Of a stretch of DNA of 24,000 nt, positions 2,269-24,000 are shown piece after piece. Position 1 is the stretch's first letter. Every line of letters begins with the position of its first letter. Origin of the DNA: Alphaproteobacteria bacterium (GTDB lineage Bacteria > Pseudomonadota > Alphaproteobacteria > GCA-2731375); the NCBI GenBank assembly GCA_047518225.1, contig JAKZRK010000280.1, forward strand, positions 1 through 24,000, written 5' to 3'. A program made the translations under genes and the position numbers. Below the pieces are notes generated by a model. The model was not told where the DNA came from. It made no database searches and worked only from the letters and a program-made list of their open reading frames with translations.

Positions 2269-2273
2269 GCCGC

Positions 2274-3524: not shown

Positions 3525-3551
3525 CTTTATAGCGCATTGGATACCGCCTTG

Positions 3552-5877: not shown

Positions 5878-6142
5878 TTGAGCTTTCCCTGTTGATCCTC
5901 TGGCGTTGCATTCGCCTGCGCCAATATCGTTGTAATCGTGAACCGGCTTCCCGTTCACCGCGCCGACAGCAATTTCCATTCTGTCCTAACGGCCGGCGGC
6001 AGGCAACAGCCCGGCCCCGGTTTGGGTCCAATTAACTGTCCCTGCGACATTCCATGCCGGGGCCGATCTTGTTACAGTGCGGCGGGTCTGGGCACTTCAT
6101 AAACGCATGGATCAAATACTCGTGACTGGGAAGGGCGAACCG

Positions 6143-7381: not shown

Positions 7382-7426
7382 GTATTTGTCCCCATAAATA
7401 CCCTCTACGCGCCGAGGAGTCAGCGA

Positions 7427-8671: not shown

Positions 8672-8694
8672 ACAAAAGAGGGAATAGCAAGGCA

Positions 8695-9562: not shown

Positions 9563-10321
9563 TCACTTTGCCGGCCAATGGGCGGTTCGTTTTTCGATGA
9601 ATGCGCGGGCGCCTTCCTTGCGGTCCTGGGAGTTCATCACCCGGGTTTGAACCTCGCCGGTGATGCCGTCAATATCGCCATAATCGAGGGAGCTGCCGCG
9701 CACCATCAATTCCTTCATGCCCTGCACGGCGACGGGGCTGAGTTCGCAAATCCTGTTGGCCGCCCTTTCCGCCTCGGCCATGAGCTGATCCGCCGGCACG
9801 ATCTTGTTGATCATGCCCACATCATAGGCCCGTTCGGCGCTGATCCGCTCGGCGAACAGCAACACCTCCGCCGCGATGGCCCAGGGCATGAGCTTGGGGA
9901 ACCAGGCGGCGGGAATGGTGGCGATGCCCCATTGCGGCTCCGGCAGCCAGAAGGTGACGTCCGGGGAGGCGATGCGGTAATCGGCGTCCAGGGCGATCCA
10001 CATACCGTAGCCGACCACGTGGCTGTGCAGGGCGGCGATGATCGGCTTGTAGACCTTTTGGGTCTGGCTGATATCGGGAAAGTCTCCCGTGTATCGGTAG
10101 CTCTCGGGCGCCCCGCCCGACAAATCGGCGCCGGCGGAGAAGCACCGGCCATTGCCCGACAGGATCGCCACCCGCAGTTCGCCATCGTCGCGAAAATCCG
10201 CCCAGACCCGCGCCAGCTCGTCATGCAGCGCGGCATTCATGGCATTCAGCTTGTCGGGCCGGTTCAGGGTGACATAGGCGATGGCGCCCTTTTTCTCGTA
10301 CTCGATGGTGGTCAGTTTCAT
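9563..10321 (-). CDS. Enoyl-CoA hydratase/isomerase (crotonase) family protein
   Basis: The protein reads MKLTTIEYEKKGAIAYVTLNRPDKLNAMN and has the oxyanion-hole motif RCFSAGADL. I trimmed the 442-aa ORF to ATG 10321, which has GGAGGAA 8 nt upstream. Confidence 0.88.
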   Translation of the reverse strand: MKLTTIEYEKKGAIAYVTLNRPDKLNAMNAALHDELARVWADFRDDGELRVAILSGNGRCFSAGADLSGGAPESYRYTGDFPDISQTQKVYKPIIAALHSHVVGYGMWIALDADYRIASPDVTFWLPEPQWGIATIPAAWFPKLMPWAIAAEVLLFAERISAERAYDVGMINKIVPADQLMAEAERAANRICELSPVAVQGMKELMVRGSSLDYGDIDGITGEVQTRVMNSQDRKEGARAFIEKRTAHWPAK

Positions 10322-10347
10322 TTTATGTTTCCTCCGATGATACCGGA

Positions 10348-10980
10348 TTATTGTTGGTTTGGCGGCCAATCCCCGGCGAAAGGCCGCGCCAGGGCCCTTT
10401 CCACCAATTCCAGGCGGTCTTGGCCGTAGAACATATCGCCGTCCACGAAATAGGTAGGGGAGCCGAACACCGAGCGTTGGATCGCCTCCTCGGTGTTTCG
10501 CGCGTAGATGGCCCGGGTTTCCGGCGACAGCGCGGCGGCGAGCAAGGGCGCCGGGTCGATGCCGGCTTCGCCACCCAGGCGGGCCAGGGTCGGGCCATCG
10601 GCCAGATCCGCATCGTCCCGCCAGTGCGCCTGTAACAGGCAATGGGCCAGTTGATCGATGTTGATGCCTAGTTGCATGGCCGCGATCAGCATGCCGTTGG
10701 ACAGAGTGACATCGTTGCCGTGATGGGTGGGGATACCCACCATCACCGGGGCGCCGCGCATTTCCGCCCAACGCACGATCTCGCGGCCGGAAAAATACGC
10801 CCGCCGTTCCGGTGTCAGCCCGTTGGTCGGCCCCGGACCAGTCACCGCCACCACCCGGCGCAAATCCATTGGCCTGTGCACGATACCGCAACCCGCCGCG
10901 TCCGCGATTTCCATCAAACGGGCCGAACCCAGATAGGCATAGGCCGAATGCGCGGAATAGAAATACTCAATATGGGCCAT
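10348..10980 (-). CDS. 2-hydroxychromene-2-carboxylate isomerase / DsbA-like thioredoxin-fold protein (kappa-GST-like)
   Basis: The N-terminus IEYFYSAHSAYAYLG has SxxS in place of the DsbA CxxC, and FGSPTYFVDGDMFYGQDRL lies near the C-terminus. I trimmed the 353-aa ORF to ATG 10980, which has GGGGAGG upstream. Confidence 0.8.
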   Translation of the reverse strand: MAHIEYFYSAHSAYAYLGSARLMEIADAAGCGIVHRPMDLRRVVAVTGPGPTNGLTPERRAYFSGREIVRWAEMRGAPVMVGIPTHHGNDVTLSNGMLIAAMQLGINIDQLAHCLLQAHWRDDADLADGPTLARLGGEAGIDPAPLLAAALSPETRAIYARNTEEAIQRSVFGSPTYFVDGDMFYGQDRLELVERALARPFAGDWPPNQQ

Positions 10981-11110
10981 TATGCCTCCCCAAGGGCGGA
11001 CCATATCATTGCCGGCACGGCTTTTCCAAATTACGGAGAATTCCAGCCAGCCCGTCATGGCCGCCTTCTGCTTCGGGGTTATCTCTGCTAAATTCCCCCG
11101 ACTGATATTG

Positions 11111-11155
11111 CCGCCGCCACGCCAGGGCGCTTTGGTCTTGGCAGCGGCGGATTTT
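11111..11155 (+). promoter_or_regulatory. GC-rich hairpin plus ATTTT in the leader of the long plus-strand operon (possible attenuator)
   Basis: CCGCCGCCA (11111-11119) can pair with TGGCAGCGGCGG (11139-11150), leaving a CA bulge. ATTTTG follows immediately, and then come the SD GAGGAGAG and ATG 11171. Confidence 0.25.
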
Positions 11156-11170
11156 GCGAGGAGAGTGTTG

Positions 11171-11912
11171 ATGACTGAACTGGTCCTGCGGGCGGACGCT
11201 GACGGGGTGGCGACGTTGACCCTGAACCGGCCGGAAGCGTTGAATGCCTTGAGCCCGGATTTGTTTGTCGAACTGCGCGGCCATGTGGAAAGCATCGCGC
11301 GCGAAGTGGACGATGTGGGCTGTGTGGTGTTGCGCGGCGCGGGGCGGTCTTTTTTGCGCCGGCAATGATTTGAAGTCGATCCAGGCCGGAGCGGAGGCGC
11401 CCTCCCCAACCTATCAGGCCGATACCATCGACATGATCGAAAACCTGCCCCAACCCGTGATCGCCGAGATCCGGGGCCATTGCTATACGGGCGGCCTGGA
11501 ACTGGCCCTGGCCTGCGATCTGCTGGTCGCCTCCACCACCGCCAAGTTTTCCGATACCCACGGCAAATGGGGCATGACGCCGCGCTGGGGCATGAGCCAG
11601 CGCCTGCCCCGGCGGATCGGGCCGCTGAAGGCCAAGGAAATGAGTTTTACCGCCCGCGCCTACAGCGGCGCCGAGGCGGCGGCCTTTGGCCTGGCCAACC
11701 AATGCGTGGAGGATGGCGAACTGGAAGCCGTGGTGAAAAAAATGGCGGCCGACATCGTGGGCAATTCCTGGCACTCCCTGCGCGGCAACAAGATGCTGTA
11801 TAACCGCGGCCAGGATTACACCTTTCACGACGGCCTGGCATTCGAGATGGCGGAAAGCCCCGGCCGCGGCCCCGATATCGAAGAGCGCCTGAAGGCTTTC
11901 GCCAAAAATTGA
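11171..11912 (+). pseudogene. Enoyl-CoA hydratase/isomerase family gene interrupted by a +1 frameshift in a T6 run
   Basis: The N-terminal part, MTELVLRADADGVATLTLNRPEALNAL...VVLRGAGRSF, ends at TGA 11366-11368. The rest, CAGNDLK...GHCYTGGLELALACD...FHDGLAFE, continues in the +1 frame to 11912. Removing one T from TCTTTTTTGC (T run 11350-11355) restores the canonical motif GAGRSFCAGNDL. Confidence 0.85.
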
Positions 11913-11923
11913 GGAAGACCGTC

Positions 11924-13336
11924 ATGTCCCAGCCGATCTGGCAATGGAGCGCCATGGATACCGCCGCTGGCATCCGAGCCGGTAAAATCACGGCCCAGGA
12001 AGCCGTCGATGCCGCCATTCAGCGCATGGCGGATACCAACGCGACCGTCAACGCAGTGACCGTTGATCTGTCCGAGGAGGCCATGGCGGCCGCCAGGGAG
12101 GCCGATGGCGTTGTCGAAAGCGGCGTGGCCCTGGGGCCGCTGCACGGCGTGCCTGTCACCATCAAGGAAAATGTCGATCAGGTGGGGCAGGCCACCACCA
12201 ACGGCGTGCCCGGCTATGCCGATGTGGTGGCGAAAGAGGACTCGCCCGTGGTCGCCAATCTGCGCCGGGCCGGCGCCATCGTCATCGGGCGCACCAATAC
12301 GCCGGAATTCAGCCTGCGCTGGTTCACCGACAATCCCCTGCGCGGCCTAACCAGGAACCCCTGGAACCACGGCGTTACCCCCGGCGGCTCGTCAGGCGGC
12401 GCGGCGGCGGCTTGTGCGCTTGGCATGGGCGCCATCGCCCACGGCAACGATCTGGGCGGATCCCTACGCTATCCCGCCTATGCCTGTGGTCTGGCCACGA
12501 TCCGCCCCTCTCTGGGACGGGTGCCCGCCTATAACCCGACAGCCGCCGAAGAACGGCCGCCGATCCTGCAATTGATGTCCGTGCAGGGGCCCATTGCGCG
12601 GGAAGTCCGCGATGTGCGCCTGGCCCTGGGAGCCATGGCGCAACATGATGCCCGCGACCCCTGGTGGGTGCCCGCGCCCCTAGACGGCCCCCGCCTGGAT
12701 CCCCCGATCAAGGTGGCGGTGACCAAGACGCCCGCCGGCATCGCCTGTCATGGGGCGGTGGCCACGGCGATAGATCAGGCCGCCGGCCACCTTGCCGATG
12801 CCGGCTATGCGGTGGCGGCGGTGAACCCGCCCCTGGTGGCGGAGATCGCTGAAAACTGGCGCACCTTGCTGATGACGGACACCAAGGTGATGATGGAAGC
12901 CAGTATCCGCGAACATGGTTCCCGGGATATCAATCAGGTCATCGATGACTATCTGGCCGCCTCCAACCCCCGCGACGGCGAGGGCTATATTCGCGCCCTG
13001 GCCGACCGCACCCGTCTGTTGCGGGCCTGGAGCGTGTTCATGGAGGATTATCCCCTGGTACTGGCCCCGGTCAGCCAGGTACCCCCCTTCCCGCAAGGAG
13101 AAGACCTGAAAGGCACGGCGCGGGTCAGGCAGATGCTGGACGAACAAAGTATGCTGTATGGTGTGAACGCTTTGGGCCTGCCCGCCGCCGCCGTCCCCAC
13201 AGGATTGCACGATGGCCTGCCCATGGGGGTGCAAATCATCGGCCCGCGTCTGCGGGAAGATCTATGCCTGGACGCGGCCGAGGCGGTGGAGCGCGCCACG
13301 GGCATCCTGGCGCAACAACTATGGAGCCGGACATGA
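11924..13336 (+). CDS. Amidase-signature (AS) family amidase
   Basis: The ORF has GPLHGVPVTIKENVD (catalytic Lys region), GGSSGGAAAA and the Gly/Ser-rich AS signature. ATG 11924 is preceded by GAGGAAG. Confidence 0.9.
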   Translation: MSQPIWQWSAMDTAAGIRAGKITAQEAVDAAIQRMADTNATVNAVTVDLSEEAMAAAREADGVVESGVALGPLHGVPVTIKENVDQVGQATTNGVPGYADVVAKEDSPVVANLRRAGAIVIGRTNTPEFSLRWFTDNPLRGLTRNPWNHGVTPGGSSGGAAAACALGMGAIAHGNDLGGSLRYPAYACGLATIRPSLGRVPAYNPTAAEERPPILQLMSVQGPIAREVRDVRLALGAMAQHDARDPWWVPAPLDGPRLDPPIKVAVTKTPAGIACHGAVATAIDQAAGHLADAGYAVAAVNPPLVAEIAENWRTLLMTDTKVMMEASIREHGSRDINQVIDDYLAASNPRDGEGYIRALADRTRLLRAWSVFMEDYPLVLAPVSQVPPFPQGEDLKGTARVRQMLDEQSMLYGVNALGLPAAAVPTGLHDGLPMGVQIIGPRLREDLCLDAAEAVERATGILAQQLWSRT

Positions 13337-13842
13337 GTACTGGATGGCCGGAAGAAATATACGGCCTGCTGCGTGAGAATGGCATCGACCAGATGGCCTA
13401 TGTGCCCGACGCGGGCCACGACCATCTGATCAAACGCTCGATCGCGGACCCCGAGGTGCATGCCATCGCCCTGACCACCGAGGAGGAAGGCGTCGGCCTG
13501 CTGGCGGGCGCCCATTTGGGCGGCGGCCGCGGCGTGTTGCTGATGCAAAGCAGCGGCGTGGGCAACTGCATCAACCTCTTGTCCCTGATCAGGGCGGGAC
13601 GTTTTCCCTTCCTGACCCTGATCTCCATGCGCGGCGATTTCGGCGAGGGCAACCCCTGGCAAATTCCCATGGGGCAATCGACCCAGCCGGTGCTGGAAGC
13701 CTGTGATGTGACCTGTCTGCGGATCGACGATCCGGCGGAGGTTACCTCCACCATCGGCGCGGCCATTACCATGGCCTTTCAAAACGAAATGCCGATCGCT
13801 GTCCTACTGGGGCAGAAGTTGATCGGCGCCAAGATATTTTAG
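13333..13842 (+). CDS. ThDP-dependent decarboxylase, alpha (PYR-domain) subunit; sulfopyruvate/phosphonopyruvate decarboxylase-like (ComD-like)
   Basis: The 169-aa protein has VPDAGHDHL, TTEEEGVGLLAGAHLGG, LLMQSSGVGNCINLL and ISMRGDFGE, matching the N-terminal pyrimidine-binding half of ComD/Ppd-type enzymes. The ATG overlaps the amidase stop (ATGA, 13333-13336). Confidence 0.8.
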   Translation: MSTGWPEEIYGLLRENGIDQMAYVPDAGHDHLIKRSIADPEVHAIALTTEEEGVGLLAGAHLGGGRGVLLMQSSGVGNCINLLSLIRAGRFPFLTLISMRGDFGEGNPWQIPMGQSTQPVLEACDVTCLRIDDPAEVTSTIGAAITMAFQNEMPIAVLLGQKLIGAKIF

Positions 13843-13851
13843 AGGTGAAGT

Positions 13852-14475
13852 TTGGCAAATCCGAATGAAGGCGGCCGTGCGGCCGGCAAGACGGCGACCG
13901 GGCATCTGGACCGGCGCGCCGCGGTCAAGACCCTGTTGGATATGCAAGGCGATGTCCTGATCGTGGCCGGCCTGGCCGGGGCCAAGGGTGACGTGGTGGC
14001 GGCCGTGGGCGACGACCCGCGGGTTTTCGGCTTTGCCGGGGCCATGGGCGCGGCGGCGTCCATGGGCCTGGGCCTGGCCCTGGCGCAGCCCGACAAACGG
14101 GTCATCGTGGTCACGGGCGATGGCGAATTGCTCATGAACGTGGGAACCCTGGCCACCATCGCGGTGGCTAATCCGGCCAATCTGGGCATTATTTGCGTCG
14201 ATAACGAGCATTACGGCGAGACCGGCTTTCAACGCAGCCACACGGGCCTGGGAACGGATCTTGCGACCATGGCCCAGGGCGGCGGCATCGGCGCGGTGCG
14301 CACGGTGCGCGAGACGGCCGAACTGGAGGATGCGGGCGAGATGCTGCGCAACAGCAACGGCGCCGCCTTTGTCCTCTTGAAGGTCGCCGTGGACGATCCA
14401 CCCAAGATCAGGACCTCCTGGGATGCGGCCTTTCACAAAAACCGTTTCCGACAGGCCCTGCTGGGACATCCATGA
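13852..14475 (+). CDS. ThDP-dependent decarboxylase, beta (PP-domain) subunit; ComE-like
   Basis: The ThDP-binding motif GDGELLMNVGTLATIAVANPANLGIICVDNEHYG (GDG...N) is present. A TTG start at 13852 is inferred from AGAGGTGAAG just upstream and from conserved sequence that begins before the first in-frame ATG. Confidence 0.78.
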   Translation: MANPNEGGRAAGKTATGHLDRRAAVKTLLDMQGDVLIVAGLAGAKGDVVAAVGDDPRVFGFAGAMGAAASMGLGLALAQPDKRVIVVTGDGELLMNVGTLATIAVANPANLGIICVDNEHYGETGFQRSHTGLGTDLATMAQGGGIGAVRTVRETAELEDAGEMLRNSNGAAFVLLKVAVDDPPKIRTSWDAAFHKNRFRQALLGHP

Positions 14476-15695
14476 CCGCAGGGTTTCCGCCAAAACCTAA
14501 ACTGGCGGCCCGCATGAGCCGTTTCCAACCTTCCGCCTCCCAGGCGGCGGCGCAACAGGCGCGGGATCTGGCGGCGGCGGGCCGGGACATTATTTCCCTG
14601 ACCGCCGGAGAGCCGGACTTCCCCACGCCCGATCACGTCAAGCGGGCGGCCATGGCCGCCATGGGCCGGGAGGAGACGAAATATACCAACCGCGACGGCA
14701 GCCCGGAGATGAAGGCGGCGGTGATCGAAAAATTTCGCCGCGACAATGACCTGGACTATCGACCCGATCAGATCATCGCCTCGACCGGGGCCAAACAGGT
14801 CATCTTCAATGCCCTGATGGCCACGGTGGAAAGTGGCGGCGAGGTTATCGTGCCCGCGCCCCATTGGCTGTCCTATCCGGACATGGTGCGGCTGGTGGGC
14901 GGCGAAGCCGTCATCGTCCCCTGCCCGGCGGAGCGGCAATTCAAACTGCAACCCAGTGACCTGGAGGCCGCCATCACGCCCGCCACGCGCTGGTTGATCT
15001 TCAATGCGCCGGGCAATCCCGCCGGCGCGGTCTATAGCGCCGGCGAGATTGGTGACCTGGCGGATGTGCTGATCCGCCGCCCCTGGGTCGGCATCATCAG
15101 CGACGATATCTACGAGCATCTGCGCTATGACGGCCTGCCCTTCGTCACCTTGGCCCAACATTCCGACGATCTTCATGACCGCACCCTGTGCGTCAATGGT
15201 GTTTCAAAAGCCTATGCCATGACCGGCTGGCGCCTGGGCTATGGCGCGGGGCCAGCCAACTTGATTAAGGCCATGGCCGATGTGCAGGGCCAGTCCACGG
15301 CCTGTCCATCTTCCATCTCTCAGGCCGCCGCAATCGCGGCCCTGACGGGCGGGCAGGAACTATTGGCGGAACGGGCTGCCATCATGCAGGCACGGCGCGA
15401 CCTGATTTGCGGTTTGCTCAACGATTGTCCGGGCCTGCGCTGCCACCCACCGGGCGGGGCGATGTATATTTTCTGCTCCTGCGCCGGTCTGATCGGGGCC
15501 CGGACCCCGGACGTCGGGCGCATCGAAAGCGACGGCGATTTTACCGCCTATTTGCTTGCCGCCGGCGTCGCCGTGGTGCCCGGCGCCGCCTATGGCCTGT
15601 CGCCCTATATTCGGATTTCCTTTGCCCTGCCCGAAGCCGAATTGACCGCCGCCGCCGCCCGCATTCGCGCCGCCTGTGAAAACCTCAAAGTGTGA
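14472..15695 (+). CDS. Class I/II PLP-dependent aminotransferase (aspartate aminotransferase-like)
   Basis: The ORF has LTAGEPDFPTP, NAPGNPAG and the PLP-lysine motif NGVSKAYAMTGWRLGY. The ATG overlaps the upstream stop (ATGA, 14472-14475). Confidence 0.9.
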   Translation: MTAGFPPKPKLAARMSRFQPSASQAAAQQARDLAAAGRDIISLTAGEPDFPTPDHVKRAAMAAMGREETKYTNRDGSPEMKAAVIEKFRRDNDLDYRPDQIIASTGAKQVIFNALMATVESGGEVIVPAPHWLSYPDMVRLVGGEAVIVPCPAERQFKLQPSDLEAAITPATRWLIFNAPGNPAGAVYSAGEIGDLADVLIRRPWVGIISDDIYEHLRYDGLPFVTLAQHSDDLHDRTLCVNGVSKAYAMTGWRLGYGAGPANLIKAMADVQGQSTACPSSISQAAAIAALTGGQELLAERAAIMQARRDLICGLLNDCPGLRCHPPGGAMYIFCSCAGLIGARTPDVGRIESDGDFTAYLLAAGVAVVPGAAYGLSPYIRISFALPEAELTAAAARIRAACENLKV

Positions 15696-15704
15696 GCGTT
15701 TAAG

Positions 15705-17792
15705 ATGAGCCGTTACGCCCTGGGCATCGATATCGGCGGCACCTTCACCGATGTGGTCTTGTATGACCGCGAGGGGGGCCGGCGCCTGAGCCGCAAGATA
15801 TTGACCACGCCCGGTGATCCGGCGGCGGCCGTGCTGGATGCGGTGGACCGGGTGCTACACGATGAAGCCATTGCCCCCGGCGACATTGAACGGGTGGTGC
15901 ATGCCACGACCCTGTTCACCAACGCCCTTATAGAACGCAAAGGCGCCAAAACCGCGCTTTTGACCACGGAGGGTTTCCGCGACAGTTTGGAGATCGGGCG
16001 GGAGCGGAAGTACGACCTGTATGATCTGGCGGCGAAAAAGCCCCGCCCCCTGGTCCCCCGGGAACTGCGTTTCGAGGTTGGCGAGCGCATTCTGGCGGAC
16101 GGCAGTGTCTATCGGGCCTTGGAGACCGACGCCCTGACGGAAATCGCCGAGGCGCTAACATTGGCCAAGGTTACCTCGCTCGCCATCGTCTTCCTGCATG
16201 CCTACCGCAATGATGATCACGAACAGGCCGCCGGTGCGCGCATGGCTGAACTGCTGCCCGATCTGGCGATCAGCCTGTCCAGCGATGTGGCCCCGGAAAT
16301 CCGGGAGTTCGAGCGGGCCTCGACCACCGCCGCCAATGCCTATGTGAAACCCCTGGCGCGGGATTATCTGGGTGCCTTGAGCAGCCAATTAAGGACCCGG
16401 AATATCGCCGCCCCATTGTTGTTGATGCTGTCCAGCGGCGGTTTGACCCATGTGGGCGAGGTGCGCCGCTCGCCGGTGCAAATGCTGGAATCCGGTCCCG
16501 CCGCCGGCGCCCTGGCCGCCGCCGATATTGGCCGGGCCGAGGGGTTGGGCCATGTCCTGGCCTTCGACATGGGCGGCACGACCGCCAAGCTGTGCCTGAT
16601 TGATGGAGATGAGCCGGCCATCGCCTATCGCTTCGAGGCGGCGCGGGAACGCCGCTTTGCCGAGGGCAGCGGCCTGCCCATCCGCATCTCCACCGTGGAA
16701 TTGCTCGAGATTGGCGCCGGCGGCGGTTCCATCGCCCGCCTGGACAGCCTGGGCCTGTTAAAAGCCGGACCGGACAGCGCCGGCGCCGTGCCCGGACCCG
16801 TGGCCTATGGCCGGGGCGGCGCCGCGCCCACGGTAACCGATGCGGATTTCGCCCTCGGTTATCTGGCAGCGGAGGGTTTTGCCGGCGGCGCCATTGACGT
16901 AGACCTGCCCGCCTGTCACACGGCAATCGAGGCACTTGCGGATCGGGCCGGCCTGTCATGGGAAAAACTGGCCTGGGGCATTCATGATCTGGTGAACGAG
17001 AACATGGCCTCGGCCGCCCGCGTGCATATCGCCGAAAAGGGCCGCGACCCGCGCAACTACACCCTGGTCGCCACGGGGGGTGCGGGGCCCGTGCATGCCT
17101 ATTATCTGGCCGGCAAGTTGGGCATCAAACGCATCGTCTGTCCCCGCAATGCAGGTGTTGCCTCGGCCTTTGGTTTGCTGCTGGCGCCGGCGCGCGTCGA
17201 CCGCACCGCCGCCTTTGCCGCCCCCCTGGACAGCTTGGATTGGCCGGCCCTGGAAACCGCCTATGGGGAATTGGAAGCCGCCGCCCGCCAGGTCATCGCC
17301 GACACCGGGGCGGATGCAGGCGGCGCCCAGGTACGGCGGCTGGCCGATATGCGCAATATTGGCCAGGGCTTTGAGCTGGTGGTGACGCTGCCCCCCGGTC
17401 CTTACACCCCCGCCAGCCACGATGGCTTGTTGGCGGCCTATGCCCAGGCTTATCAGGTTCAATTCACCCGGCCGCCGCCGAATGTTCCCGTCGCCGTCGC
17501 CGCTATCCGGGTACGCCTGACGGCCAAGGGAGACGCGGCCGTCGATGATCTGGCCCAGGGCCCGGACCGCCCCCCGGCGGAGAAGCGCCGGCGCCAGGTC
17601 TATTTCCCCGAAACCGACGGCGCCGTGGCGACCGCGATCCATGACCGTGCCGCCATGAGGGCCGGGGAAACATTCACCGGCCCCGCCGTGGTCGAGGAGC
17701 CTGAATCCACCATGGTCATCGGACCCGGTGGCCGCTTTCACCTTTCCGCCGGCGGCAACCTGATCATCGACCTGCCCGAGGATACGCCATGA
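15705..17792 (+). CDS. hyuA: Hydantoinase/oxoprolinase family protein, A subunit (ATP-dependent cyclic-amide hydrolase/carboxylase family)
   Basis: The 695-aa protein has the N-terminal ALGIDIGGTFTDVVLYD and a second actin-like ATPase motif, AFDMGGTTAKL. Confidence 0.9.
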   Translation: MSRYALGIDIGGTFTDVVLYDREGGRRLSRKILTTPGDPAAAVLDAVDRVLHDEAIAPGDIERVVHATTLFTNALIERKGAKTALLTTEGFRDSLEIGRERKYDLYDLAAKKPRPLVPRELRFEVGERILADGSVYRALETDALTEIAEALTLAKVTSLAIVFLHAYRNDDHEQAAGARMAELLPDLAISLSSDVAPEIREFERASTTAANAYVKPLARDYLGALSSQLRTRNIAAPLLLMLSSGGLTHVGEVRRSPVQMLESGPAAGALAAADIGRAEGLGHVLAFDMGGTTAKLCLIDGDEPAIAYRFEAARERRFAEGSGLPIRISTVELLEIGAGGGSIARLDSLGLLKAGPDSAGAVPGPVAYGRGGAAPTVTDADFALGYLAAEGFAGGAIDVDLPACHTAIEALADRAGLSWEKLAWGIHDLVNENMASAARVHIAEKGRDPRNYTLVATGGAGPVHAYYLAGKLGIKRIVCPRNAGVASAFGLLLAPARVDRTAAFAAPLDSLDWPALETAYGELEAAARQVIADTGADAGGAQVRRLADMRNIGQGFELVVTLPPGPYTPASHDGLLAAYAQAYQVQFTRPPPNVPVAVAAIRVRLTAKGDAAVDDLAQGPDRPPAEKRRRQVYFPETDGAVATAIHDRAAMRAGETFTGPAVVEEPESTMVIGPGGRFHLSAGGNLIIDLPEDTP

Positions 17793-19405
17793 GTTCTTTC
17801 GATGCCGTGACCCTGGAAGTGATCTGGAACCGCATGATCGCCAGCGTGGACGAGGCGGCCAAGGCCATCGTCCGCACCTCGTTTTCCACCCTGTCCAACG
17901 AGGCCAATGATTTCGCCTGCGTTCTGACCGATGGGTCCGGCCAGTTGCTGGCCCAGAACAGCGGCTCCATCCCCTCCTTCATCGGCACCCTGCCCGCCAC
18001 CGTGCGCCACACCCTGGAGCGTTTCGGGCACGATGGTTTGCACCCCGGCGATGTCATCTGCACCAACGATCCCTGGCTGGGCACCGGGCATCTGAACGAT
18101 TGCAGCATCGTGCGCCCCATTTTCCGCCAGGGGCGCCTGATCGCCTTTGCCGCCACCGCATCGCATATGCCCGATATCGGCGGCCGCATCCGATCCGTCA
18201 AGGCGCGGGAAATCTTCGAGGAAGGCTTTCATATTCCCCTGTTGAAGATCTTACGCGCCGGGGAGCCGGACCAGACATTCTTTGAATTATTGCGTACCCA
18301 GGTCCGCACTCCGGACCAGACCGAAGGCGATATCCACGCCCAGATCACCGCCAACTACCTGATCGAAGACCGGGTGCTGGCCATTCTGGGGGAATATGGT
18401 CTGGACGATCTGGTTGAACTATCGCGGGAATTGAACGGCCGCACGGAAGCCGCCATGCGCGCGGCCCTGGCGGAGGTCCCCGACGGCATCTATCCCTACC
18501 AAATGCTGACCGACGGGCTGCGCGCCGATGCGCCCTTTACCTTTGCCCTGAGCCTGACCATCAAGGGCGATACGGCGCATTTCGATTTCGCCGGCACCTC
18601 GCCCGTGCAGCCCAGGGCGATCAACTGCCCCTTCTGCTACACCTACGCCATGTCCGCCTATGCCATTAAATGCGCCCTGTTGCCCGATGTGCCCAACAAT
18701 TCCGGCATGTTGCGGCCCATAGAGGTGACGGCGCCCGAGAACAGCCTGTTAAACCCCCTGCCCCCGGCGTCCGTGGGCGCGCGGGCCAGCACCGGCCATT
18801 ATGTTCCCATCTTGGCCTTCGGCGCCCTGGCCGGGGTATTGCCGGACCGGGTCATGGCGGCGGCCGGCTCGCCCCTGTGGAATTGCACCCAGTCAGGGGT
18901 GCGGCCCGATGGCCAGCCCTATGCCACAAATCTGTTTTTCAACGGCGGCATGGGCGCGACCGCCGCTTCGGATGGGGAGCATGCCATCTCGTGGCCGTCC
19001 AATCTGTCGTCCACGCCGGTTGAGGTCGCGGAACAATCGGCTCCCCTGTTGTTTCATTACAAGCGCCTGCGCCCCAATTCGGGCGGTGCGGGGCAATATC
19101 GCGGCGGCCTGGGCCAGGATATGTTGATCGAAAGCCTGTCCGAGAGCCCCATCGCCGTGACCTTCATGGCGGAACGCACCCGATACGGCGCGCCGGGTTT
19201 GGCGGGCGGCGGGATGGGCGAAGTCGGCGCCGTGCAGATCAACGGTTCGGAGGCGGATAACCGGGCCCAGCATCATTTGCAAACGGGCGACCGCATATTG
19301 ATCGCCACGCCGGGCGGGGGCGGCTATGGTTCCCCAAAGGCCCGCGGCGTGGAGGACGCCGCCAGGGACCGCCGGCAAGGCTATGTGAGGGAGGATGTCG
19401 AATGA
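17789..19405 (+). CDS. hyuB: Hydantoinase B/oxoprolinase family protein, B subunit
   Basis: The 538-aa protein has DAVTLEVIWNRMIASVDEAAKAIVRTSFS, NDFACVLTD and the C-terminal PGGGGYGSP, all typical of HyuB. It shares an ATGA overlap with hyuA (17789-17792). Confidence 0.9.
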   Translation: MSSFDAVTLEVIWNRMIASVDEAAKAIVRTSFSTLSNEANDFACVLTDGSGQLLAQNSGSIPSFIGTLPATVRHTLERFGHDGLHPGDVICTNDPWLGTGHLNDCSIVRPIFRQGRLIAFAATASHMPDIGGRIRSVKAREIFEEGFHIPLLKILRAGEPDQTFFELLRTQVRTPDQTEGDIHAQITANYLIEDRVLAILGEYGLDDLVELSRELNGRTEAAMRAALAEVPDGIYPYQMLTDGLRADAPFTFALSLTIKGDTAHFDFAGTSPVQPRAINCPFCYTYAMSAYAIKCALLPDVPNNSGMLRPIEVTAPENSLLNPLPPASVGARASTGHYVPILAFGALAGVLPDRVMAAAGSPLWNCTQSGVRPDGQPYATNLFFNGGMGATAASDGEHAISWPSNLSSTPVEVAEQSAPLLFHYKRLRPNSGGAGQYRGGLGQDMLIESLSESPIAVTFMAERTRYGAPGLAGGGMGEVGAVQINGSEADNRAQHHLQTGDRILIATPGGGGYGSPKARGVEDAARDRRQGYVREDVE

Positions 19406-19599
19406 GCAGCAATAACGTGGACGAGGCGGCCCTGGCACAACTGGCCCGGCATTTGGGATTAGAGAAGCTGTATGAGGCGCAGCCGGAGTTGGTGCGCCAA
19501 GCCTACGACGGCGGCCGCGCCATGGCCCGGCGCCTGCAACGGCCCGACGATATCGCCGACGAACCGGCCCATGTTTTCCGGGCCGACAACAATGTCTGA
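19402..19599 (+). CDS. Small 65-aa protein, AtzG-like/GatC-like candidate partner of the downstream amidase
   Basis: A strong SD, GGAGG (19390-19394), lies 7 nt before ATG 19402. The ATG overlaps the hyuB stop (ATGA), and the ORF's 3' end overlaps the amidase ATG by 8 nt. The protein is acidic and helical, and its C-terminal DEPAHVFRA resembles my recollection of the DUF4089/AtzG-like small proteins found next to AtzE-type amidases. Confidence 0.6.
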   Translation: MSSNNVDEAALAQLARHLGLEKLYEAQPELVRQAYDGGRAMARRLQRPDDIADEPAHVFRADNNV

Positions 19600-20998
19600 A
19601 AAGATTAAGGACCTGGCGTTTTTGAGCCTGACGGAGGCCGCGGCGCGGATCCGCACCGGCGAGCTATCGCCCGTCACCTACGCGCAATGCCTGCTGGACC
19701 GTATCGGCGCCCATGACCACTCGTTCGACAGCTTCCTCCGCGTTCTGACCGAAAGCGTCCTGCAGGAGGCGGCGGCGGCGGAGCGCGCGGTAAAGGCCGG
19801 CGAGACTTTAGGGCCCTTGCATGGCGTGCCCTTTGGCCTGAAAGACATTATCGATGCCGCCGGTCTGCCGACCACGGCGCATTCACAAATCCTGGCTCAG
19901 CAGCCGCCCAAGACCGGTGATGCCGCCGTGACCAAACGCCTGCGCGCGGCAGGGGGGATATTGCTGGGCAAGTTGGCGACCCACGAATTCGCCCTGGGCG
20001 GGCCATCCTTCGATCTGCCCTGGCCGCCGGCCCGCAACCCGTGGAACCGGCAGCGTTTTCCGGGCGGCTCTTCGTCCGGCTCCGGCGTGGCGGTGGCGGC
20101 GGGGTTCCTGCCCATGGCGCTCGGCACGGACACCGGCGGCTCCGTCCGCAACCCGGCGACGGCCTGCGGCATCGTCGGCATGAAGGCGACCTATGGCCGG
20201 GTCAGCCGCCAGGGCGTGGTGCCCTTGTCCTATTCCCTGGATCACGTGGGACCCATGACCCGGACGGTAGGCGACAATGCCCTGATGTTGAACGCCCTGG
20301 CCGGCCACGATCCCGCCGATCCGGCCTCGGCCGATGTGCCGGTCCCTGACTACACGGCCCAGCTTGAGCAAGGCGTCAAGGGCCTGCGCATAGGCGTCAT
20401 CCGCCATTTCCATAATCGTGACACGATCGCCGACCCGGTGGTGGCGGACGCCATCGAAGACGCGTTGGGGGTCTTGCAGGAACTGGGCGCCGAGGTGGCC
20501 GAGATCGAGACCGAACCCCTGGTCACCTACGCCACCTGTAACCGGGTGATCCTGCTGTCGGAAGCCTATGCCATCCATCGCCATTGGCTCGCCGAACGGC
20601 CTGGTGAGTACAGCGCGTCGTTCCTGGAACGGATCCTGCCCGGCGCTTTTCTGACGGCGGATGACTATGTGGATGCCTTGCGCCTGCGCCGGCGATTGAC
20701 CGCTGGTTTCAACCAGACCATCCGGGACCTGGACGGGGTCATTGTTGCCTCCTCCATGGACCCACCGTTTGTCATTGACGACGCGGCGGAGATTGCCCTG
20801 AAATATACCCGTCAGGCCCGTGCGCCCTTCAACCTGACCGGCAACCCGGCCCTGTCCCTGCCCATCGGTTTCGATGGCGACGGCCTGCCCCTGGCCATGC
20901 AGATCGTGGCCGGGAATTTTCAAGAGGCCATGATCTATCGTATCGCCGCCGCCTACGAGGCCGCCACGACATGGCATGACCGCCGCCCTCCCCTATAA
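19592..20998 (+). CDS. Amidase-signature family amidase (GatA/AtzE-like)
   Basis: The ORF has GPLHGVPFGLKDIID and GGSSSGSGVAVAAGFLPMALGTDTGGSVRNPATACGIVGMKATYGRVSR, the full AS signature with the Ser-cisSer-Lys triad context. I preferred ATG 19592 (MSEKIKDL...). An in-frame ATG at 19571 is also possible. Confidence 0.9.
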   Translation: MSEKIKDLAFLSLTEAAARIRTGELSPVTYAQCLLDRIGAHDHSFDSFLRVLTESVLQEAAAAERAVKAGETLGPLHGVPFGLKDIIDAAGLPTTAHSQILAQQPPKTGDAAVTKRLRAAGGILLGKLATHEFALGGPSFDLPWPPARNPWNRQRFPGGSSSGSGVAVAAGFLPMALGTDTGGSVRNPATACGIVGMKATYGRVSRQGVVPLSYSLDHVGPMTRTVGDNALMLNALAGHDPADPASADVPVPDYTAQLEQGVKGLRIGVIRHFHNRDTIADPVVADAIEDALGVLQELGAEVAEIETEPLVTYATCNRVILLSEAYAIHRHWLAERPGEYSASFLERILPGAFLTADDYVDALRLRRRLTAGFNQTIRDLDGVIVASSMDPPFVIDDAAEIALKYTRQARAPFNLTGNPALSLPIGFDGDGLPLAMQIVAGNFQEAMIYRIAAAYEAATTWHDRRPPL

Positions 20999-21016
20999 AG
21001 AAACGAGGCACCTTAG

Positions 21017-21907
21017 ATGTTATCGACCCATGGACGTTACGAGTTTTCCCCGATCAGCCAACGGCCCGATTATTCCTGGCCCGAGGGCAAACGCCTGGCG
21101 GTCTACGTGGCCCTGAACGTGGAACAATTCGCCTGGGATGAAAGCATTGAATCCGCCATCGCCCCGTCCGGCATGCACAACAAGCAAAGCGTCTATGCCT
21201 GGCGGGACTATGGCAACCGGGTCGGTTTCTGGCGCCTGATGGAGCTGTTCGACGAACTGGACATTCCAATCCAGGGGCAATTGAACGCATCGATCTATGA
21301 CCATGCCCCGCAGATAGCCGAACGCCTGCGTCAGCGCGGCGACGAGTTCCTGGGCCACGGCATCACCAACTCGGAAGAGCAAGGTATCCTGGCTGAGGAC
21401 GCGGAACGCGCCTTGATCAAGACCACGACCGATGCCATCACCCGGAACGAGGGCAAGGCGCCCATGGGCTGGATGAGCCCCTGGCTGTCGCAAAGCGATC
21501 AAACCCTGGATCTATTGGCCGAGGCCGGCTACCGCTATCAGATGGACTGGTGCTGTGATGATCAGCCGATCTGGATGACAACAAGGGGCGAACCCATCCT
21601 TGCCATGCCCTATCCGGTGGAATTGAACGACAACCGGGCCATTGTCTTGCACAAGATGACGCCGGTGCAGTACGCCGACGCCCTGATCGATAATTTCGAT
21701 GAAATGCAGGAGCAATCGGTCCGCCAGCCCCTGGTCTTCCCGATCTCGTTGCATACATTCGTCGTTGGCCAGCCTTTTCGCCTGCGCCAGTTGCGCCGGG
21801 CCCTGAAGCATATCGCCGCCCACCGGGAACAAATCTGGCTCACCCGGCCCGGCGATATCTGCCGCCACATTGAAAGCCTGCCCGCCAGCGTCGTGCCAGG
21901 AAGCTGA
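21017..21907 (+). CDS. Polysaccharide deacetylase (CE4) family protein, PuuE-allantoinase-like
   Basis: The 296-aa protein has WPEGKRLAVYVALNVE, RDYGNRVGFWRLMELFDELDIP and GHGITNSE, resembling metal-independent PuuE-type cyclic-amide hydrolases. ACGAGG lies upstream of the ATG. Confidence 0.78.
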   Translation: MLSTHGRYEFSPISQRPDYSWPEGKRLAVYVALNVEQFAWDESIESAIAPSGMHNKQSVYAWRDYGNRVGFWRLMELFDELDIPIQGQLNASIYDHAPQIAERLRQRGDEFLGHGITNSEEQGILAEDAERALIKTTTDAITRNEGKAPMGWMSPWLSQSDQTLDLLAEAGYRYQMDWCCDDQPIWMTTRGEPILAMPYPVELNDNRAIVLHKMTPVQYADALIDNFDEMQEQSVRQPLVFPISLHTFVVGQPFRLRQLRRALKHIAAHREQIWLTRPGDICRHIESLPASVVPGS

Positions 21908-21936
21908 GAAGAAACTAAAAAGCGGATTAAATCCAT

Positions 21937-23118
21937 ATGAGCGATGTGAAGCGCGGCCGGGAATTCCTCAACACCCCAGGGCCGACGAATATTCCCGACC
22001 GTGTCCTGAACGCCATGCACCAGCCGGCCGTGGACTTCGCCGCGCCGCCGTTTTTCAGTATGGCGCGTGGTTGCTTCGAGGATTTGAAACCGATTTTCAA
22101 GACCGAGGGACCGGTGTTCATCTATGCCGCCTCGGGCCATGGGGCCTGGGAGGCGGCCCTGACCAATACCCTGTCCCCCGGCGATCATATTCTGGTGCCG
22201 GAAACCGGCAACTTCTCGCTAAAATGGGGCCTGATGGCGGAATCCCTGGGCCTGGTGATCGAGCATCTGCCCGGCGATTGGCGCCATGCCATTGATCCGG
22301 ACGCGGTGGAACAGCACCTGCGCGAGGACCGCGAGGGCCAGATCAGGGCGGTGCTGATGATCCACGTGGATACGGCCACCGGAATTATCTCGGACGTGGC
22401 CGCCGTGCGCCGGGCCATCGACAACGCCAATCATGGCACATTGTTCATGGTCGATACCATCGCCTCGCTGGCGACGGTGGATTTCCAAATGGATGCCTGG
22501 GGTGTCGATGTGGCCATAGCCGCGGCGCAAAAGGGATTGATGTGTCCGCCCGGGCTTGGCTTTACCGCCTGCAGCGAAAAGGCGCTGCGGGCCGGGCAAA
22601 ATGCGCGGTTGCCGCGCAATTATTGGGACTGGCGGGAACGCATGACGGAGGAGCAATACATCCGTTTCTGCGGTACCGCGCCGGAACATCTGTTGTTCGC
22701 CCTGCGCGAGGCCTTGAACATGCTGGCGGAAGAGGGCCTGCCGGCGATATTTGCCCGCCATAAACGCCTGGCCGGCGCGGTCCGCCACGCGGTTGCCGTC
22801 TGGGCCAGCGACGGCGGCATGGCATTCAACGCCATTGTGCCCGAACAGCGGGCCAATTCGGTGACCGCCATCCGCGTCCCAGCGGGCTTTGACGGCGAGG
22901 CGGTCCGCGTTGAGTCCCGGGAACGCTTTCAGGTCAGCCTGGGCGGCGGCCTGGACCGCCTCAAGGGCGATGTCTTCCGCATTGGCCATATGGGCGATTT
23001 GAACAGCCCCATGATCCTGGGCGCCCTGGCCGGCGTGGAGGCCACCTTGCAGGCCCTGGAAATACCCCACGGCCGTGGCGGCGTGACCGCCGCCATCGAT
23101 TACCTTGTGACCCATTAG
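21937..23118 (+). CDS. Class V PLP-dependent aminotransferase (alanine/serine-glyoxylate, PucG-like)
   Basis: The ORF has NTPGPTNIPDRVLNAM at the N-terminus, a PLP-lysine context of VDVAIAAAQKGLMCPPGLGF, and the C-terminal FRIGHMGD. Confidence 0.88.
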   Translation: MSDVKRGREFLNTPGPTNIPDRVLNAMHQPAVDFAAPPFFSMARGCFEDLKPIFKTEGPVFIYAASGHGAWEAALTNTLSPGDHILVPETGNFSLKWGLMAESLGLVIEHLPGDWRHAIDPDAVEQHLREDREGQIRAVLMIHVDTATGIISDVAAVRRAIDNANHGTLFMVDTIASLATVDFQMDAWGVDVAIAAAQKGLMCPPGLGFTACSEKALRAGQNARLPRNYWDWRERMTEEQYIRFCGTAPEHLLFALREALNMLAEEGLPAIFARHKRLAGAVRHAVAVWASDGGMAFNAIVPEQRANSVTAIRVPAGFDGEAVRVESRERFQVSLGGGLDRLKGDVFRIGHMGDLNSPMILGALAGVEATLQALEIPHGRGGVTAAIDYLVTH

Positions 23119-23122
23119 AGCC

Positions 23123-23749
23123 ATGATAAAACCGGACCGGGCGGAAGACTGGCGGGTTTATTATCAACGCACGGGCGGCCGCCCGCCACGCGAAACCCTG
23201 TTGCGCGCCCTGGCCCGGTTCGAGGCCGAAAACCCGGTGGGCTGGGTAGGCCGGGCCGTTGATCTGGGCTGTGGCGGCGGCCGCGATACCATCGAAATTC
23301 TGCGCCGGGGCTGGTCCGTGCTGGCGATCGATGCCCAGGCCTCGGCCATCGAGACCCTGATGGGGCGGCCGGAACTGGTGGAATTCGGCGTCGAGCCGGA
23401 CACCCAGGTGGCGCGAATGGAACAGGCCCTCTGGCCAGGGTCGGATCTGGTCAATTCCTCGTTCGCCCTGCCGCTTTGTCCCCAGGTGGATTTCCCTGGC
23501 CTGTGGCAGCGCATTCATGACGGCCTGACGCCGGGTGGTCGATTTAGTGGTCAATTGTATGGCGACCGCGACCAATGGGCCGGCGATCCCAGCAACAGCC
23601 ATTTCACGTTGAGCGAAGCGCGGGATTTATTGCGTGCCTATGATATCGAGCTGTTCCGGGAAGAGGAAACGGATTCCGTCACCCCGCGCCGCACCGCCAA
23701 ACACTGGCACATCTATCACATCGTCGCCCGGAAGCCGGCCCAAACCTAG
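23123..23749 (+). CDS. Class I SAM-dependent methyltransferase
   Basis: SAM-binding motif I is present (AVDLGCGGGRD), followed by acidic post-I residues (LAIDAQ) and LTPGGRF. It begins 4 nt after the upstream stop. Confidence 0.8.
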   Translation: MIKPDRAEDWRVYYQRTGGRPPRETLLRALARFEAENPVGWVGRAVDLGCGGGRDTIEILRRGWSVLAIDAQASAIETLMGRPELVEFGVEPDTQVARMEQALWPGSDLVNSSFALPLCPQVDFPGLWQRIHDGLTPGGRFSGQLYGDRDQWAGDPSNSHFTLSEARDLLRAYDIELFREEETDSVTPRRTAKHWHIYHIVARKPAQT

Positions 23750-24000
23750 AGCAGTTCCGGGCTATCGTGGATCATTTTATGACGCCGCCATTGGGCCGGC
23801 GAACACAGCAGCAAAATTACCGCCACCGCCAAAAATGAGGCCGAGGCCGAGGCGGCAATGGGCAGTTCATAGCCGCCGCTCAAATCAAAGGCGAAGCCGG
23901 CCGCCACCGGCCCGACCAGATTGCCAAGGGCCGTGCCTGAATACAGTACGCCCAGAATTCCGCCCACATTCTTGACGCCGAAATAGTCCGCCGCCAATGC
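23746..24000 (-). CDS. MFS transporter, C-terminal fragment (the gene continues beyond the window end)
   Basis: The last two hydrophobic spans read DYFGVKNVGGILGVLYSGTALGNLVGPVAAGFAFD, reminiscent of oxalate/formate-antiporter-like MFS proteins. The frame is open to position 24000. Confidence 0.6.
   Translation of the reverse strand, partial: ALAADYFGVKNVGGILGVLYSGTALGNLVGPVAAGFAFDLSGGYELPIAASASASFLAVAVILLLCSPAQWRRHKMIHDSPELL

Follow-up and report, generated by a model that had tools for sequence, protein, structure and literature searches.

What could be the common task of twelve closely packed genes on one strand of an alphaproteobacterial contig? The stretch of DNA analysed here, called the window in what follows, comprises 24,000 nucleotides (nt), positions 1 to 24,000 of contig JAKZRK010000280.1 (Alphaproteobacteria bacterium, assembly GCA_047518225.1). 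Positions 11171 to 23749 hold a cluster that codes, in this order, for a protein of the crotonase family (ECH), a first amidase-signature amidase (Ami1), the two subunits of a predicted split thiamine diphosphate (ThDP)-dependent decarboxylase (TPPa and TPPb, together TPPab), an aminotransferase (AspC), the HyuA and HyuB subunits (HyuAB) of an ATP-dependent hydantoinase/oxoprolinase/lactamase family, a protein of 65 amino acids (aa), a second amidase (Ami2), a hydrolase of the CE4 fold (CE4), another aminotransferase (AGXT) and a methyltransferase (MT). We propose that the cluster specifies a catabolic pathway that scavenges nitrogen from a small, carboxylated cyclic amide – a lactam, a cyclic imide or a hydantoin/ureide – in an uncultured clade of marine Alphaproteobacteria. 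Each step of this pathway is drawn from family membership and gene context, and we would put the probability of the proposal at roughly 0.55.

That the genes form a unit is visible in the relatives of the window strain. One genome per bacterial and archaeal species was scanned with an alignment of HyuB, which returned 80 loci, designated below by L numbers. In the best 20 of these 80 loci HyuB is 80–94% identical, and all 20 belong to species-level metagenome-assembled genomes (MAGs) of marine Alphaproteobacteria or 'Rhodospirillaceae', across which the cluster proteins are 70–94% identical. The MAGs originate from Saanich Inlet, from the Black, Caspian and Arabian Seas, from Antarctic waters and from depths of 3000–4000 m. 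Wherever a contig covers it, the order ECH, Ami1, TPPa, TPPb, HyuA, HyuB, small open reading frame (ORF), Ami2, CE4, AGXT, MT is kept, apart from the losses that are listed below. An earlier annotation of the window, made from its letters alone and named here the sequence-only reading, had declared beforehand that its claim would fall with a loss of adjacency in related genomes; across the 20 marine MAGs, the genes remain adjacent. Even the junctions are preserved: the 4-nt overlap of Ami1 with TPPa is found in all loci except L018, where 8 nt separate the two genes, that of HyuA with HyuB in most loci of the clade, and the 8-nt overlap of the small ORF with Ami2 in 17 of 18 loci. The ratio of non-synonymous to synonymous substitution rates (dN/dS) stays between 0.08 and 0.36 over all 12 genes, i.e. 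they are under purifying selection.

Some genes come and go. AspC is restricted to three lineages of the clade (the window, L006 and L021), with a divergence that matches that of its neighbours, which suggests an ancestral gene that would have been lost repeatedly. L006, L020 and L022 lack AGXT, and since L006 does have AspC, the two aminotransferases may be interchangeable. The most compact form, in L022, dispenses with Ami1, AspC and AGXT altogether and retains nine genes (ECH, TPPa, TPPb, HyuA, HyuB, small ORF, Ami2, CE4, MT); L020, a short contig that begins at HyuB, displays the same AGXT-less arrangement downstream. MT is kept in all 17 loci that cover its position.

The stronger argument for a functional linkage is found outside the clade, because there sub-modules of the cluster recur with a different gene order. 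Plasmid 2 of Variovorax sp. RA8 (NZ_LR594663, 271–283 kb) carries counterparts of HyuA (51% identity), HyuB (56%), CE4 (52%), Ami2 with its small ORF (46%) and AspC (57%), together with a second amidase. Bradyrhizobium sp. LTSP885 groups genes for a Glu/Leu-type amino-acid dehydrogenase, an ABC transporter, HyuA, HyuB, an ALS-like ThDP enzyme, TPPa (59%), TPPb (48%), GntR, an aldehyde dehydrogenase and AspC (52%). AspC homologues at 52–57% identity adjoin HyuAB in Variovorax, Bradyrhizobium and L049, and HyuAB is found with CE4 (48%) and AGXT (46%) in L023 and L024, from an alphaproteobacterial MAG and a MAG labelled Acetobacterales. A CE4 gene lies between HyuA and HyuB in Rokubacteria; on a Sulfitobacter plasmid, the homologue of CE4 sits among genes annotated as aspartate/glutamate (hydantoin-type) racemase, D-hydantoinase, carbamoylase and HyuAB. 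As for TPPab, homologues with 48–69% identity are accompanied on Bradyrhizobium and Sinorhizobium plasmids by genes for an amino-acid dehydrogenase, an aldehyde dehydrogenase and a PxpA lactamase. The closest are found in L093 (Bradyrhizobium guangxiense plasmid p53363, 233–254 kb), where TPPa is 69% identical and the other subunit 54%, next to genes for a Glu/Leu-type dehydrogenase, an aldehyde dehydrogenase, a three-gene ABC transporter, PrpD, a CoA transferase, a cysteine dioxygenase and a crotonase; the annotation of this TPPa homologue, whose group is uncharacterised, as phosphonopyruvate decarboxylase is probably wrong. In such recurring contexts, the split ThDP decarboxylase is followed by an aldehyde dehydrogenase. 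It is because these contexts combine the opening of a ring or an amide, the making of a 2-oxo acid from an amino acid and a split ThDP decarboxylase that we have adopted the catabolic reading.

Other arrangements of the same families may be recorded here for their own sake. Between 3.4 and 21.5 kb, L023 and L024 hold HyuA, HyuB, a second HyuB paralogue, two CE4 genes, an AGXT-type aminotransferase and two HpcH-type aldolases, as well as three D-glutamate cyclase paralogues and two genes of the arylmalonate-decarboxylase/hydantoin-racemase fold. In L070 (10001–16700, a groundwater Proteobacteria MAG), one HyuA is followed by four tandem HyuB paralogues, 64, 57, 56 and 53% identical to the HyuB of the window.

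What are these enzymes? Families were called with Pfam and NCBIfam models judged against their curated cut-offs, then by comparison with the structures of the PDB. At the family level every call of the sequence-only reading held, and the catalytic motifs of both amidases, the pyridoxal phosphate lysines, the ThDP motif and the S-adenosylmethionine (SAM) motif can be read in the translations. Its more specific labels – 'PuuE-like', 'AtzE/AtzG-like', 'ComDE-like', 'PucG-like' – did not survive as such: they reflect superfamily resemblance, every equivalog cut-off being missed. HyuA matches PF05378, PF01968 and PF19278, and HyuB matches PF02538 (1.1e-150). Their best NCBIfam models are the caprolactamase subunits CapA and CapB (NF050156 and NF050157), with 478 and 216 bits, each against a cut-off of 1000, and the best PDB matches of HyuB are N-methylhydantoinase (7hk5, 230 bits) and caprolactamase (6yra_B, 187 bits). 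Both amidases match PF01425. Ami1 (1.2e-88), where the GGSSGG, GGSxRxPA and Lys motifs are apparent, passes the generic subfamily NF005687 (632 against 428 bits), and its nearest solved structures are 8xac and 5h6s, both named only 'amidase', followed by urethanases. Ami2 (1.6e-102) obtains 321 bits with the GatA model, for a cut-off of 481, which is more than with the AtzE models (NF006631, 300 against 461 bits; TIGR02715, 286 against 425.75 bits); the PDB comparison likewise places GatA (241 bits) before AtzE (6c62, 216 bits).

For the putative decarboxylase, TPPa, a TPP_enzyme_N-like subunit, reaches 132 bits with the model of the alpha subunit of sulfopyruvate decarboxylase, ComD (TIGR03845, cut-off 147.95); TPPb, a TPP_enzyme_C subunit, matches PF02775 (7.8e-18), displays the GDG...N motif of ThDP enzymes, and reaches 123 bits with ComE (TIGR03846, cut-off 221.5), its best PDB match being 9iz3, the beta subunit of a split phosphonopyruvate decarboxylase. 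AspC matches PF00155 (1.2e-66) and the aspartate transaminase model NF004769 with 529 bits for a cut-off of 617. AGXT matches PF00266 and obtains 383 bits with the BhcA model (NF045640, cut-off 650); in the PDB, Arabidopsis serine:glyoxylate aminotransferase is much closer to it than PucG (288 against 131 bits). CE4 matches PF01522, and the PuuE model with 126.7 bits for a cut-off of 424.6 (TIGR03212). Its best PDB match is PuuE itself (3cl6), where H-G-Y-R-W is aligned with H-G-I-T-N in the window protein. PuuE allantoinase uses a metal-independent Glu-His-Trp triad, according to PMC11424739, which cites Ramazzina 2008, and enzymes of the PuuE family hydrolyse cyclic imides (PMC11424739). In the window protein the Trp of the triad is replaced by Asn, while the Glu and the second, downstream, catalytic His are kept. 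Finally, MT matches PF13649, PF08242 and PF08241, with no close named model among those scanned.

The 65-aa protein merits separate consideration. Eighteen related loci keep it, and with it an invariant LGL...EP.H.F pattern; with a dN/dS of 0.13–0.36 the ORF is a real gene. Its family comprises 59 database proteins, all 'hypothetical' or without a name, none with a Pfam domain. On a Variovorax and on a Roseivivax plasmid, its homologues lie directly upstream of homologues of Ami2 with an overlap of a few nt, and on the latter the couple exists with no HyuAB nearby; it is therefore probably a partner of the amidase and not of HyuAB, in the form of a small subunit of Ami2. The contexts of Ami2 homologues on Agrobacterium and Planktothrix plasmids were uninformative. 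The sequence-only reading had described an AtzG-like partner, and the position and the overlap of the gene conform to this view; the match itself is weak, PF13318 being the top Pfam family in 2 of 14 members (best E-value, 0.015). When the PDB was searched with a profile, no match was found, to AtzG and GatC or to anything else, and an AlphaFold2 model (a three-helix unit, with a predicted local distance difference test score, pLDDT, of 79) gave no significant Foldseek match. Should the pairing be confirmed, this would be a new family of 65-aa partner subunits for amidases of the GatA/AtzE type.

How might these activities be combined? HyuAB would spend ATP to open a ring that is stable by itself, and the PuuE-related CE4 hydrolase would open or deacylate a second amide or imide bond. 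The two Ser-cisSer-Lys amidases, one of them presumably as a heterodimer with the 65-aa protein, would then take off terminal amide or carbamoyl groups as ammonia. The alpha-amino acid thus released could go to an aminotransferase linked to glyoxylate or 2-oxoglutarate: either the AGXT-type enzyme, for which glyoxylate would be the acceptor, or the AspC-type enzyme. The split ThDP enzyme would decarboxylate the resulting anionic 2-oxo acid to an aldehyde, to be oxidised by enzymes encoded elsewhere in the genome. That the nearest relatives of TPPab act on sulfopyruvate or phosphonopyruvate suggests an anionic substrate, for example a dicarboxylate. As to the initial compound, a GatA-like amidase and an oxoprolinase-like HyuAB would suit a molecule of the glutamine or pyroglutamate type, a PuuE-like CE4 enzyme and a glyoxylate aminotransferase a hydantoin or ureide. 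Neither crotonase nor methyltransferase, both part of the conserved unit, has a place in the proposed steps. A bolder version of this scenario is to be taken as tentative, the odds being against it: a dedicated, undescribed pathway with which a widespread clade of Alphaproteobacteria of mesopelagic waters and oxygen-minimum zones would mineralise a specific marine cyclic amide or imide, i.e. dissolved organic nitrogen of the lactam type, combining ATP-dependent ring opening, a new family of 65-aa partners and a split ThDP decarboxylase for an anionic 2-oxo acid other than sulfopyruvate and phosphonopyruvate.

Several observations weigh against the catabolic reading. None of the products reaches the curated cut-off of a named enzyme (PuuE, AtzE, ComDE, CapAB or BhcA), so that the names used above are resemblances, not identifications. 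The cluster has no gene for an aldehyde dehydrogenase, a dedicated uptake system or a regulator, and its crotonase is disrupted in the window strain. The flow imagined in the sequence-only reading, from ring opening through amide hydrolysis and transamination to the decarboxylation of a 2-oxo acid, is echoed in Bradyrhizobium and Variovorax; the reduced nine-gene form, deprived of aminotransferases and of Ami1, excludes transamination from the invariant core, and the steps leading from amino acid to 2-oxo acid may thus not be core either. Within the clade, synteny continues downstream into a transporter gene of the major facilitator superfamily (MFS), followed by MlaC-like, LolD, LolC/E and ProS genes; because these flanking housekeeping genes are also syntenic, the conservation of the cluster is partly a matter of phylogenetic inertia, and it is weaker evidence than recurrence across phyla. 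When, finally, the neighbours of 60 HyuAB loci outside the clade were clustered, only HyuA and HyuB recurred, and about 55 HyuAB loci beyond those with sub-modules share no recurrent neighbour: judged by its surroundings, HyuAB behaves as a portable cassette.

This modularity leads one to ask whether the cluster might be two modules juxtaposed, ECH-Ami1-TPPab(-AspC) dealing with a 2-oxo or amino acid and HyuAB-small ORF-Ami2-CE4(-AGXT)-MT dealing with a cyclic amide, with different substrates and perhaps a shared transcript. On Bradyrhizobium and Sinorhizobium plasmids, TPPab indeed keeps company with genes for a dehydrogenase and an aldehyde dehydrogenase while HyuAB is lacking, Variovorax has HyuAB, CE4 and amidases without TPPab, and the junction between TPPb and HyuA varies more than any other in the clade, from –4 to 227 nt, AspC being found there in some loci and not in others. 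Yet TPPb and HyuA overlap by 4 nt in nine relatives, HyuAB and TPPab stand side by side with AspC in Bradyrhizobium LTSP885, and the ECH-to-MT block is a stable unit whereas its upstream flank varies; we regard two independent modules as unlikely, although this is the most serious of the competing views. Rather less probable still is a link with organosulfonates or phosphonates, where TPPab would be a sulfopyruvate (or phosphonopyruvate) decarboxylase and AspC a cysteate aminotransferase, the class V enzyme AGXT would interconvert aldehyde and amine, and the hydrolases would free a sulfonated amino acid from an amide conjugate. The nearest curated models for TPPab are ComD and ComE, then phosphonopyruvate decarboxylase, yet ComD (132 against 148 bits) and ComE (123 against 221.5 bits) both remain below cut-off, even if a split phosphonopyruvate decarboxylase is the best PDB match of TPPb. 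A cysteine dioxygenase gene and a three-gene ABC transporter do lie near the 69%-identical Bradyrhizobium homologue, but the window and the related loci lack Xsc, a sulfite exporter, phosphoenolpyruvate (PEP) mutase and PhnX/PhnA. Similarly, the class V enzyme matches the PhnW/AepZ models (1e-38) while being far nearer to glyoxylate aminotransferases, and we know of no natural sulfonated lactam or imide.

It is also conceivable, though very improbable, that the cluster makes a compound instead of degrading one, with HyuAB as an ATP-dependent carboxylase or lactam former, a GatCA-like pair as a glutaminase that supplies ammonia, and MT tailoring the product. The HyuAB superfamily does include acetone and acetophenone carboxylases; however, in the PDB comparison HyuB is far from these enzymes, N-methylhydantoinase and caprolactamase being much nearer to it. 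The structure that comes closest to Ami2 is GatA, which is a glutaminase subunit, and the small ORF overlaps, and is thereby coupled to, both HyuB and Ami2; against this, the small ORF and Ami2 are found beside a TRAP importer without HyuAB in Roseivivax, and apart from HyuAB in Variovorax. A methyltransferase is unusual for a catabolic operon, but four hydrolases with no ligase, synthetase or carrier-protein gene are hardly the equipment of a biosynthetic one, and the contexts of the relatives are catabolic (LysR/GntR regulators, importers, aldehyde dehydrogenases). Degradation of a cyclic amide by a single pathway is thus the reading that we retain.

The first gene of the cluster poses a problem of its own. 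Its 65 N-terminal codons (11171–11368) and the remainder, which ends at 11912, are in different frames, owing to a +1 frameshift: one extra T in a run of six T at about 11350–11355, where the window reads TCTTTTTTGC and 17 of the 17 relatives that cover the site read TCN-TTY-TGC (Ser-Phe-Cys). Once repaired, the product matches PF00378 (4.5e-44) and obtains 211 bits with NF004840, for a cut-off of 253; the second catalytic Glu of canonical hydratases is replaced, within a motif FSDTH also present in the mycobacterial structures 3p85 and 3qyr, both uncharacterised. The genes of the relatives are intact (246–269 aa), and the dN/dS of the repaired gene against them is 0.12–0.17, so that any inactivation must be young. 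The same extra T is present in two near-identical metagenome assemblies, L001, which differs from the window by 3 mismatches over 15,961 nt, and L002, with 11 mismatches and one gap. A second gene is affected upstream: that of tryptophan 2,3-dioxygenase (8695–9515) is split into ORFs of 178 and 107 aa by a 2-nt AA insertion at 9177–9178, common to the window and L001, while in L002 it is intact (272 aa). Because L002 shares the extra T without the dioxygenase frameshift of the window, we lean towards a real and recent disruption of the crotonase gene rather than a consensus error, and the two frameshifts suggest ongoing pseudogene formation in the lineage of the window strain. A programmed +1 frameshift was considered and is unlikely, since the T run is conserved in none of the relatives.

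Mobile elements have left traces in the same lineage. An element of the insertion sequence (IS) family IS630, about 1.18 kb long, with a DDE_3 transposase and the ends TAGTGTCC...GGACACTA, occupies 15962–17138 in both L001 and L002, in opposite orientations. It is inserted at the TA of the MT stop codon (about 23747 in window coordinates) and is absent from the window. Further, the 115 nt at 141–255 of the window are 100% identical to 19139–19253 of L001 (and found in L002 too), about 3 kb downstream of the cluster, where they adjoin IS genes (DUF4096/DDE_Tnp_1) in both assemblies; this stretch is probably an IS end or a repeat.

The layout of the cluster is given in the table below.

Table. 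Position of the cluster genes and of the adjoining features in the window
Feature	Position	Strand	Remark
ECH, crotonase/enoyl-CoA hydratase family	11171–11912	+	from the ORF listing; frameshifted
Ami1, amidase-signature amidase 1	11924–13336	+	
TPPa, predicted alpha (Pyr-domain) subunit of split ThDP-dependent decarboxylase	13333–13842	+	169 aa
TPPb, predicted beta (PP-domain) subunit of split ThDP-dependent decarboxylase	13852–14475	+	207 aa
AspC-type class I aminotransferase	14472–15695	+	accessory among relatives
HyuA-type subunit, ATP-dependent hydantoinase/oxoprolinase/lactamase family	15705–17792	+	
HyuB-type subunit	17789–19405	+	
Small ORF, conserved 65-aa protein	19402–19599	+	
Ami2, amidase-signature amidase 2, GatA/AtzE-like branch	19592–20998	+	
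CE4-fold hydrolase, related to PuuE allantoinase and PuuE-family imidases	21017–21907	+	
AGXT, class V aminotransferase, serine/aspartate:glyoxylate type	21937–23118	+	missing in 3 relatives
MT, small SAM-dependent methyltransferase	23123–23749	+	always the final cluster gene
MFS transporter, C-terminal part, monocarboxylate/oxalate-formate type	23746–24000	–	convergent
Divergent intergenic region, DsbA-like gene (–) to ECH	10978–11170		presumed promoter region by position only

The coordinates of twelve genes on the forward strand between 11171 and 23749, as proposed initially, agree with the ORF listing and with the junctions read directly, with the reservation that ECH is interrupted as an ORF, its 742 nt not being divisible by three. 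Direct reading also recovers the ATGA overlaps at 13333, 14472, 17789 and 19402 and the 8-nt overlap at 19592; the other gaps (11, 9, 9, 18, 29 and 4 nt) fall within the announced 4–29 nt, so that the junctions of the cluster span –8 to +29 nt. The end of the convergent MFS gene, at 23746, overlaps the stop codon of MT. A scan for promoters and terminators gave nothing above expectation: it found no sigma-70-like site at 10978–11170, terminator-like sites were not in excess (8 observed, 11.3 expected), and a scan of the window with Rfam found no RNA family. The remark that no regulator is visible was upheld in the window ORFs scanned with Pfam and NCBIfam, where no regulator domain was found.

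Downstream, the MFS gene (PF07690; the full-length orthologue in L018 obtains 224 bits for an SfMCT cut-off of 320) is kept, together with the housekeeping genes, in at least 11 relatives, and its adjacency may reflect nothing else than this general synteny. The ECH-to-MT block is stable across relatives while the upstream flank varies. In many or most of them, genes on the same strand for an alpha/beta hydrolase (abH), a reductive-dehalogenase-like Fe-S protein, kynureninase (KynU) and tryptophan 2,3-dioxygenase (TDO) directly precede ECH, and this upstream block may be a module for halogenated tryptophan or kynurenine. The reductive-dehalogenase-like gene (PF13486, PF13484), located in the upstream parts of L007–L022, is absent from the window, where the related region is 6077–9515. 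A functional link of the cluster to the kynurenine genes was considered and rejected: the upstream boundary varies, with abH, KynU or TDO as the last gene, and in the window two genes on the opposite strand intervene, so that we treat KynU/TDO as a separate module. These two genes (9563–10977, –) code for a second crotonase and a DsbA-like protein of the 2-hydroxychromene-2-carboxylate isomerase type; lying between TDO and the cluster, the pair separates the latter from the kynurenine genes in the window lineage and in L004. Farther upstream (257–3524, –), two acyl-CoA dehydrogenase genes, one of them PimC-like (393 bits, cut-off 624), flank an RraA/HMG-aldolase-like gene, with no evident relation to the cluster.

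Why should one care about this particular set of genes? A large part of the dissolved organic nitrogen in the sea is amide and heterocyclic nitrogen, and this part is poorly understood. The cluster, for its part, is conserved in many uncultured Alphaproteobacteria of oxygen-minimum and deep waters. Identifying the substrate would give a function to a widely distributed subgroup of HyuAB, to a family of small proteins that pair with amidases and were previously without annotation, and to split ThDP decarboxylases now mis-annotated as phosphonopyruvate or sulfopyruvate decarboxylases. Until then, the cluster counts among the many uncharacterised catabolic operons that consist of common families; it is real, it is conserved, and it is widespread in ecological terms.

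It remains to place the cluster among systems that have been described. In agreement with the view that it matches no characterised pathway, a full-text literature search for this combination of enzymes found no gene-for-gene characterised counterpart, and none of the annotated plasmid relatives carries a named pathway. In hyu clusters, and in the creatinine/N-methylhydantoin route, an ATP-dependent HyuA/HyuB hydantoinase is followed by a carbamoyl-amino-acid amidohydrolase. The window shares with them the HyuA/HyuB pair and amide-hydrolysing enzymes, N-methylhydantoinase being the closest solved relative of HyuB, but the ORFs scanned in the window include no carbamoylase of the M20 or nitrilase type, no hydantoin racemase and no sarcosine-oxidising enzyme; the cluster has, instead, two amidase-signature enzymes, CE4, a split ThDP decarboxylase, two aminotransferases, a crotonase and a methyltransferase. 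The caprolactam pathway of Pseudomonas jessenii begins with the ATP-dependent opening of the lactam by caprolactamase CapAB, after which an aminotransferase takes over. A HyuAB-type enzyme and aminotransferase genes are again common to both, and CapA and CapB are the best NCBIfam models; by contrast, the scores remain far under the equivalog cut-offs, and the aminotransferases of the window are of alpha-amino-acid types, not omega-transaminases.

AtzE-AtzG is the 1-carboxybiuret hydrolase of the atzDGEHF operon for cyanuric acid (PMC6219798). As there, an amidase of the GatA/AtzE branch is preceded and overlapped by a small ORF, whereas the AtzE cut-offs are missed and neither the window nor the related loci contain AtzD (cyanuric acid hydrolase), AtzH or AtzF. 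With PuuE allantoinase and the cyclic imidases BpIH/AfIH (PMC11424739), CE4 shares the fold family, the Glu and the second catalytic His; it differs by the model cut-off that it misses, by Asn in place of the Trp of the triad as that source describes it, and by the lack of other purine-catabolism genes around it. ComDE is likewise a split alpha/beta ThDP enzyme without central domain, encoded by adjacent genes, but its cut-offs are missed; with the beta-hydroxyaspartate cycle, the cut-off of BhcA (NF045640) is missed and the bhcBCD partner genes are not found in the window. The plasmid 2 cluster of Variovorax sp. RA8, itself uncharacterised, differs in the order and strands of its genes, in its LysR regulators and its binding protein of the tripartite tricarboxylate transporter (TTT) type, and in having no split ThDP decarboxylase, crotonase, class V aminotransferase or methyltransferase; it does have HyuA, HyuB, CE4, the small ORF with Ami2, AspC and a further amidase. 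The cluster of the window belongs to the hyu-type clusters for the utilisation of cyclic amides, and what is new with respect to these is an amidase of the GatA/AtzE type with a new small protein as its probable partner, a CE4 hydrolase that is not PuuE, and a predicted split ThDP decarboxylase.

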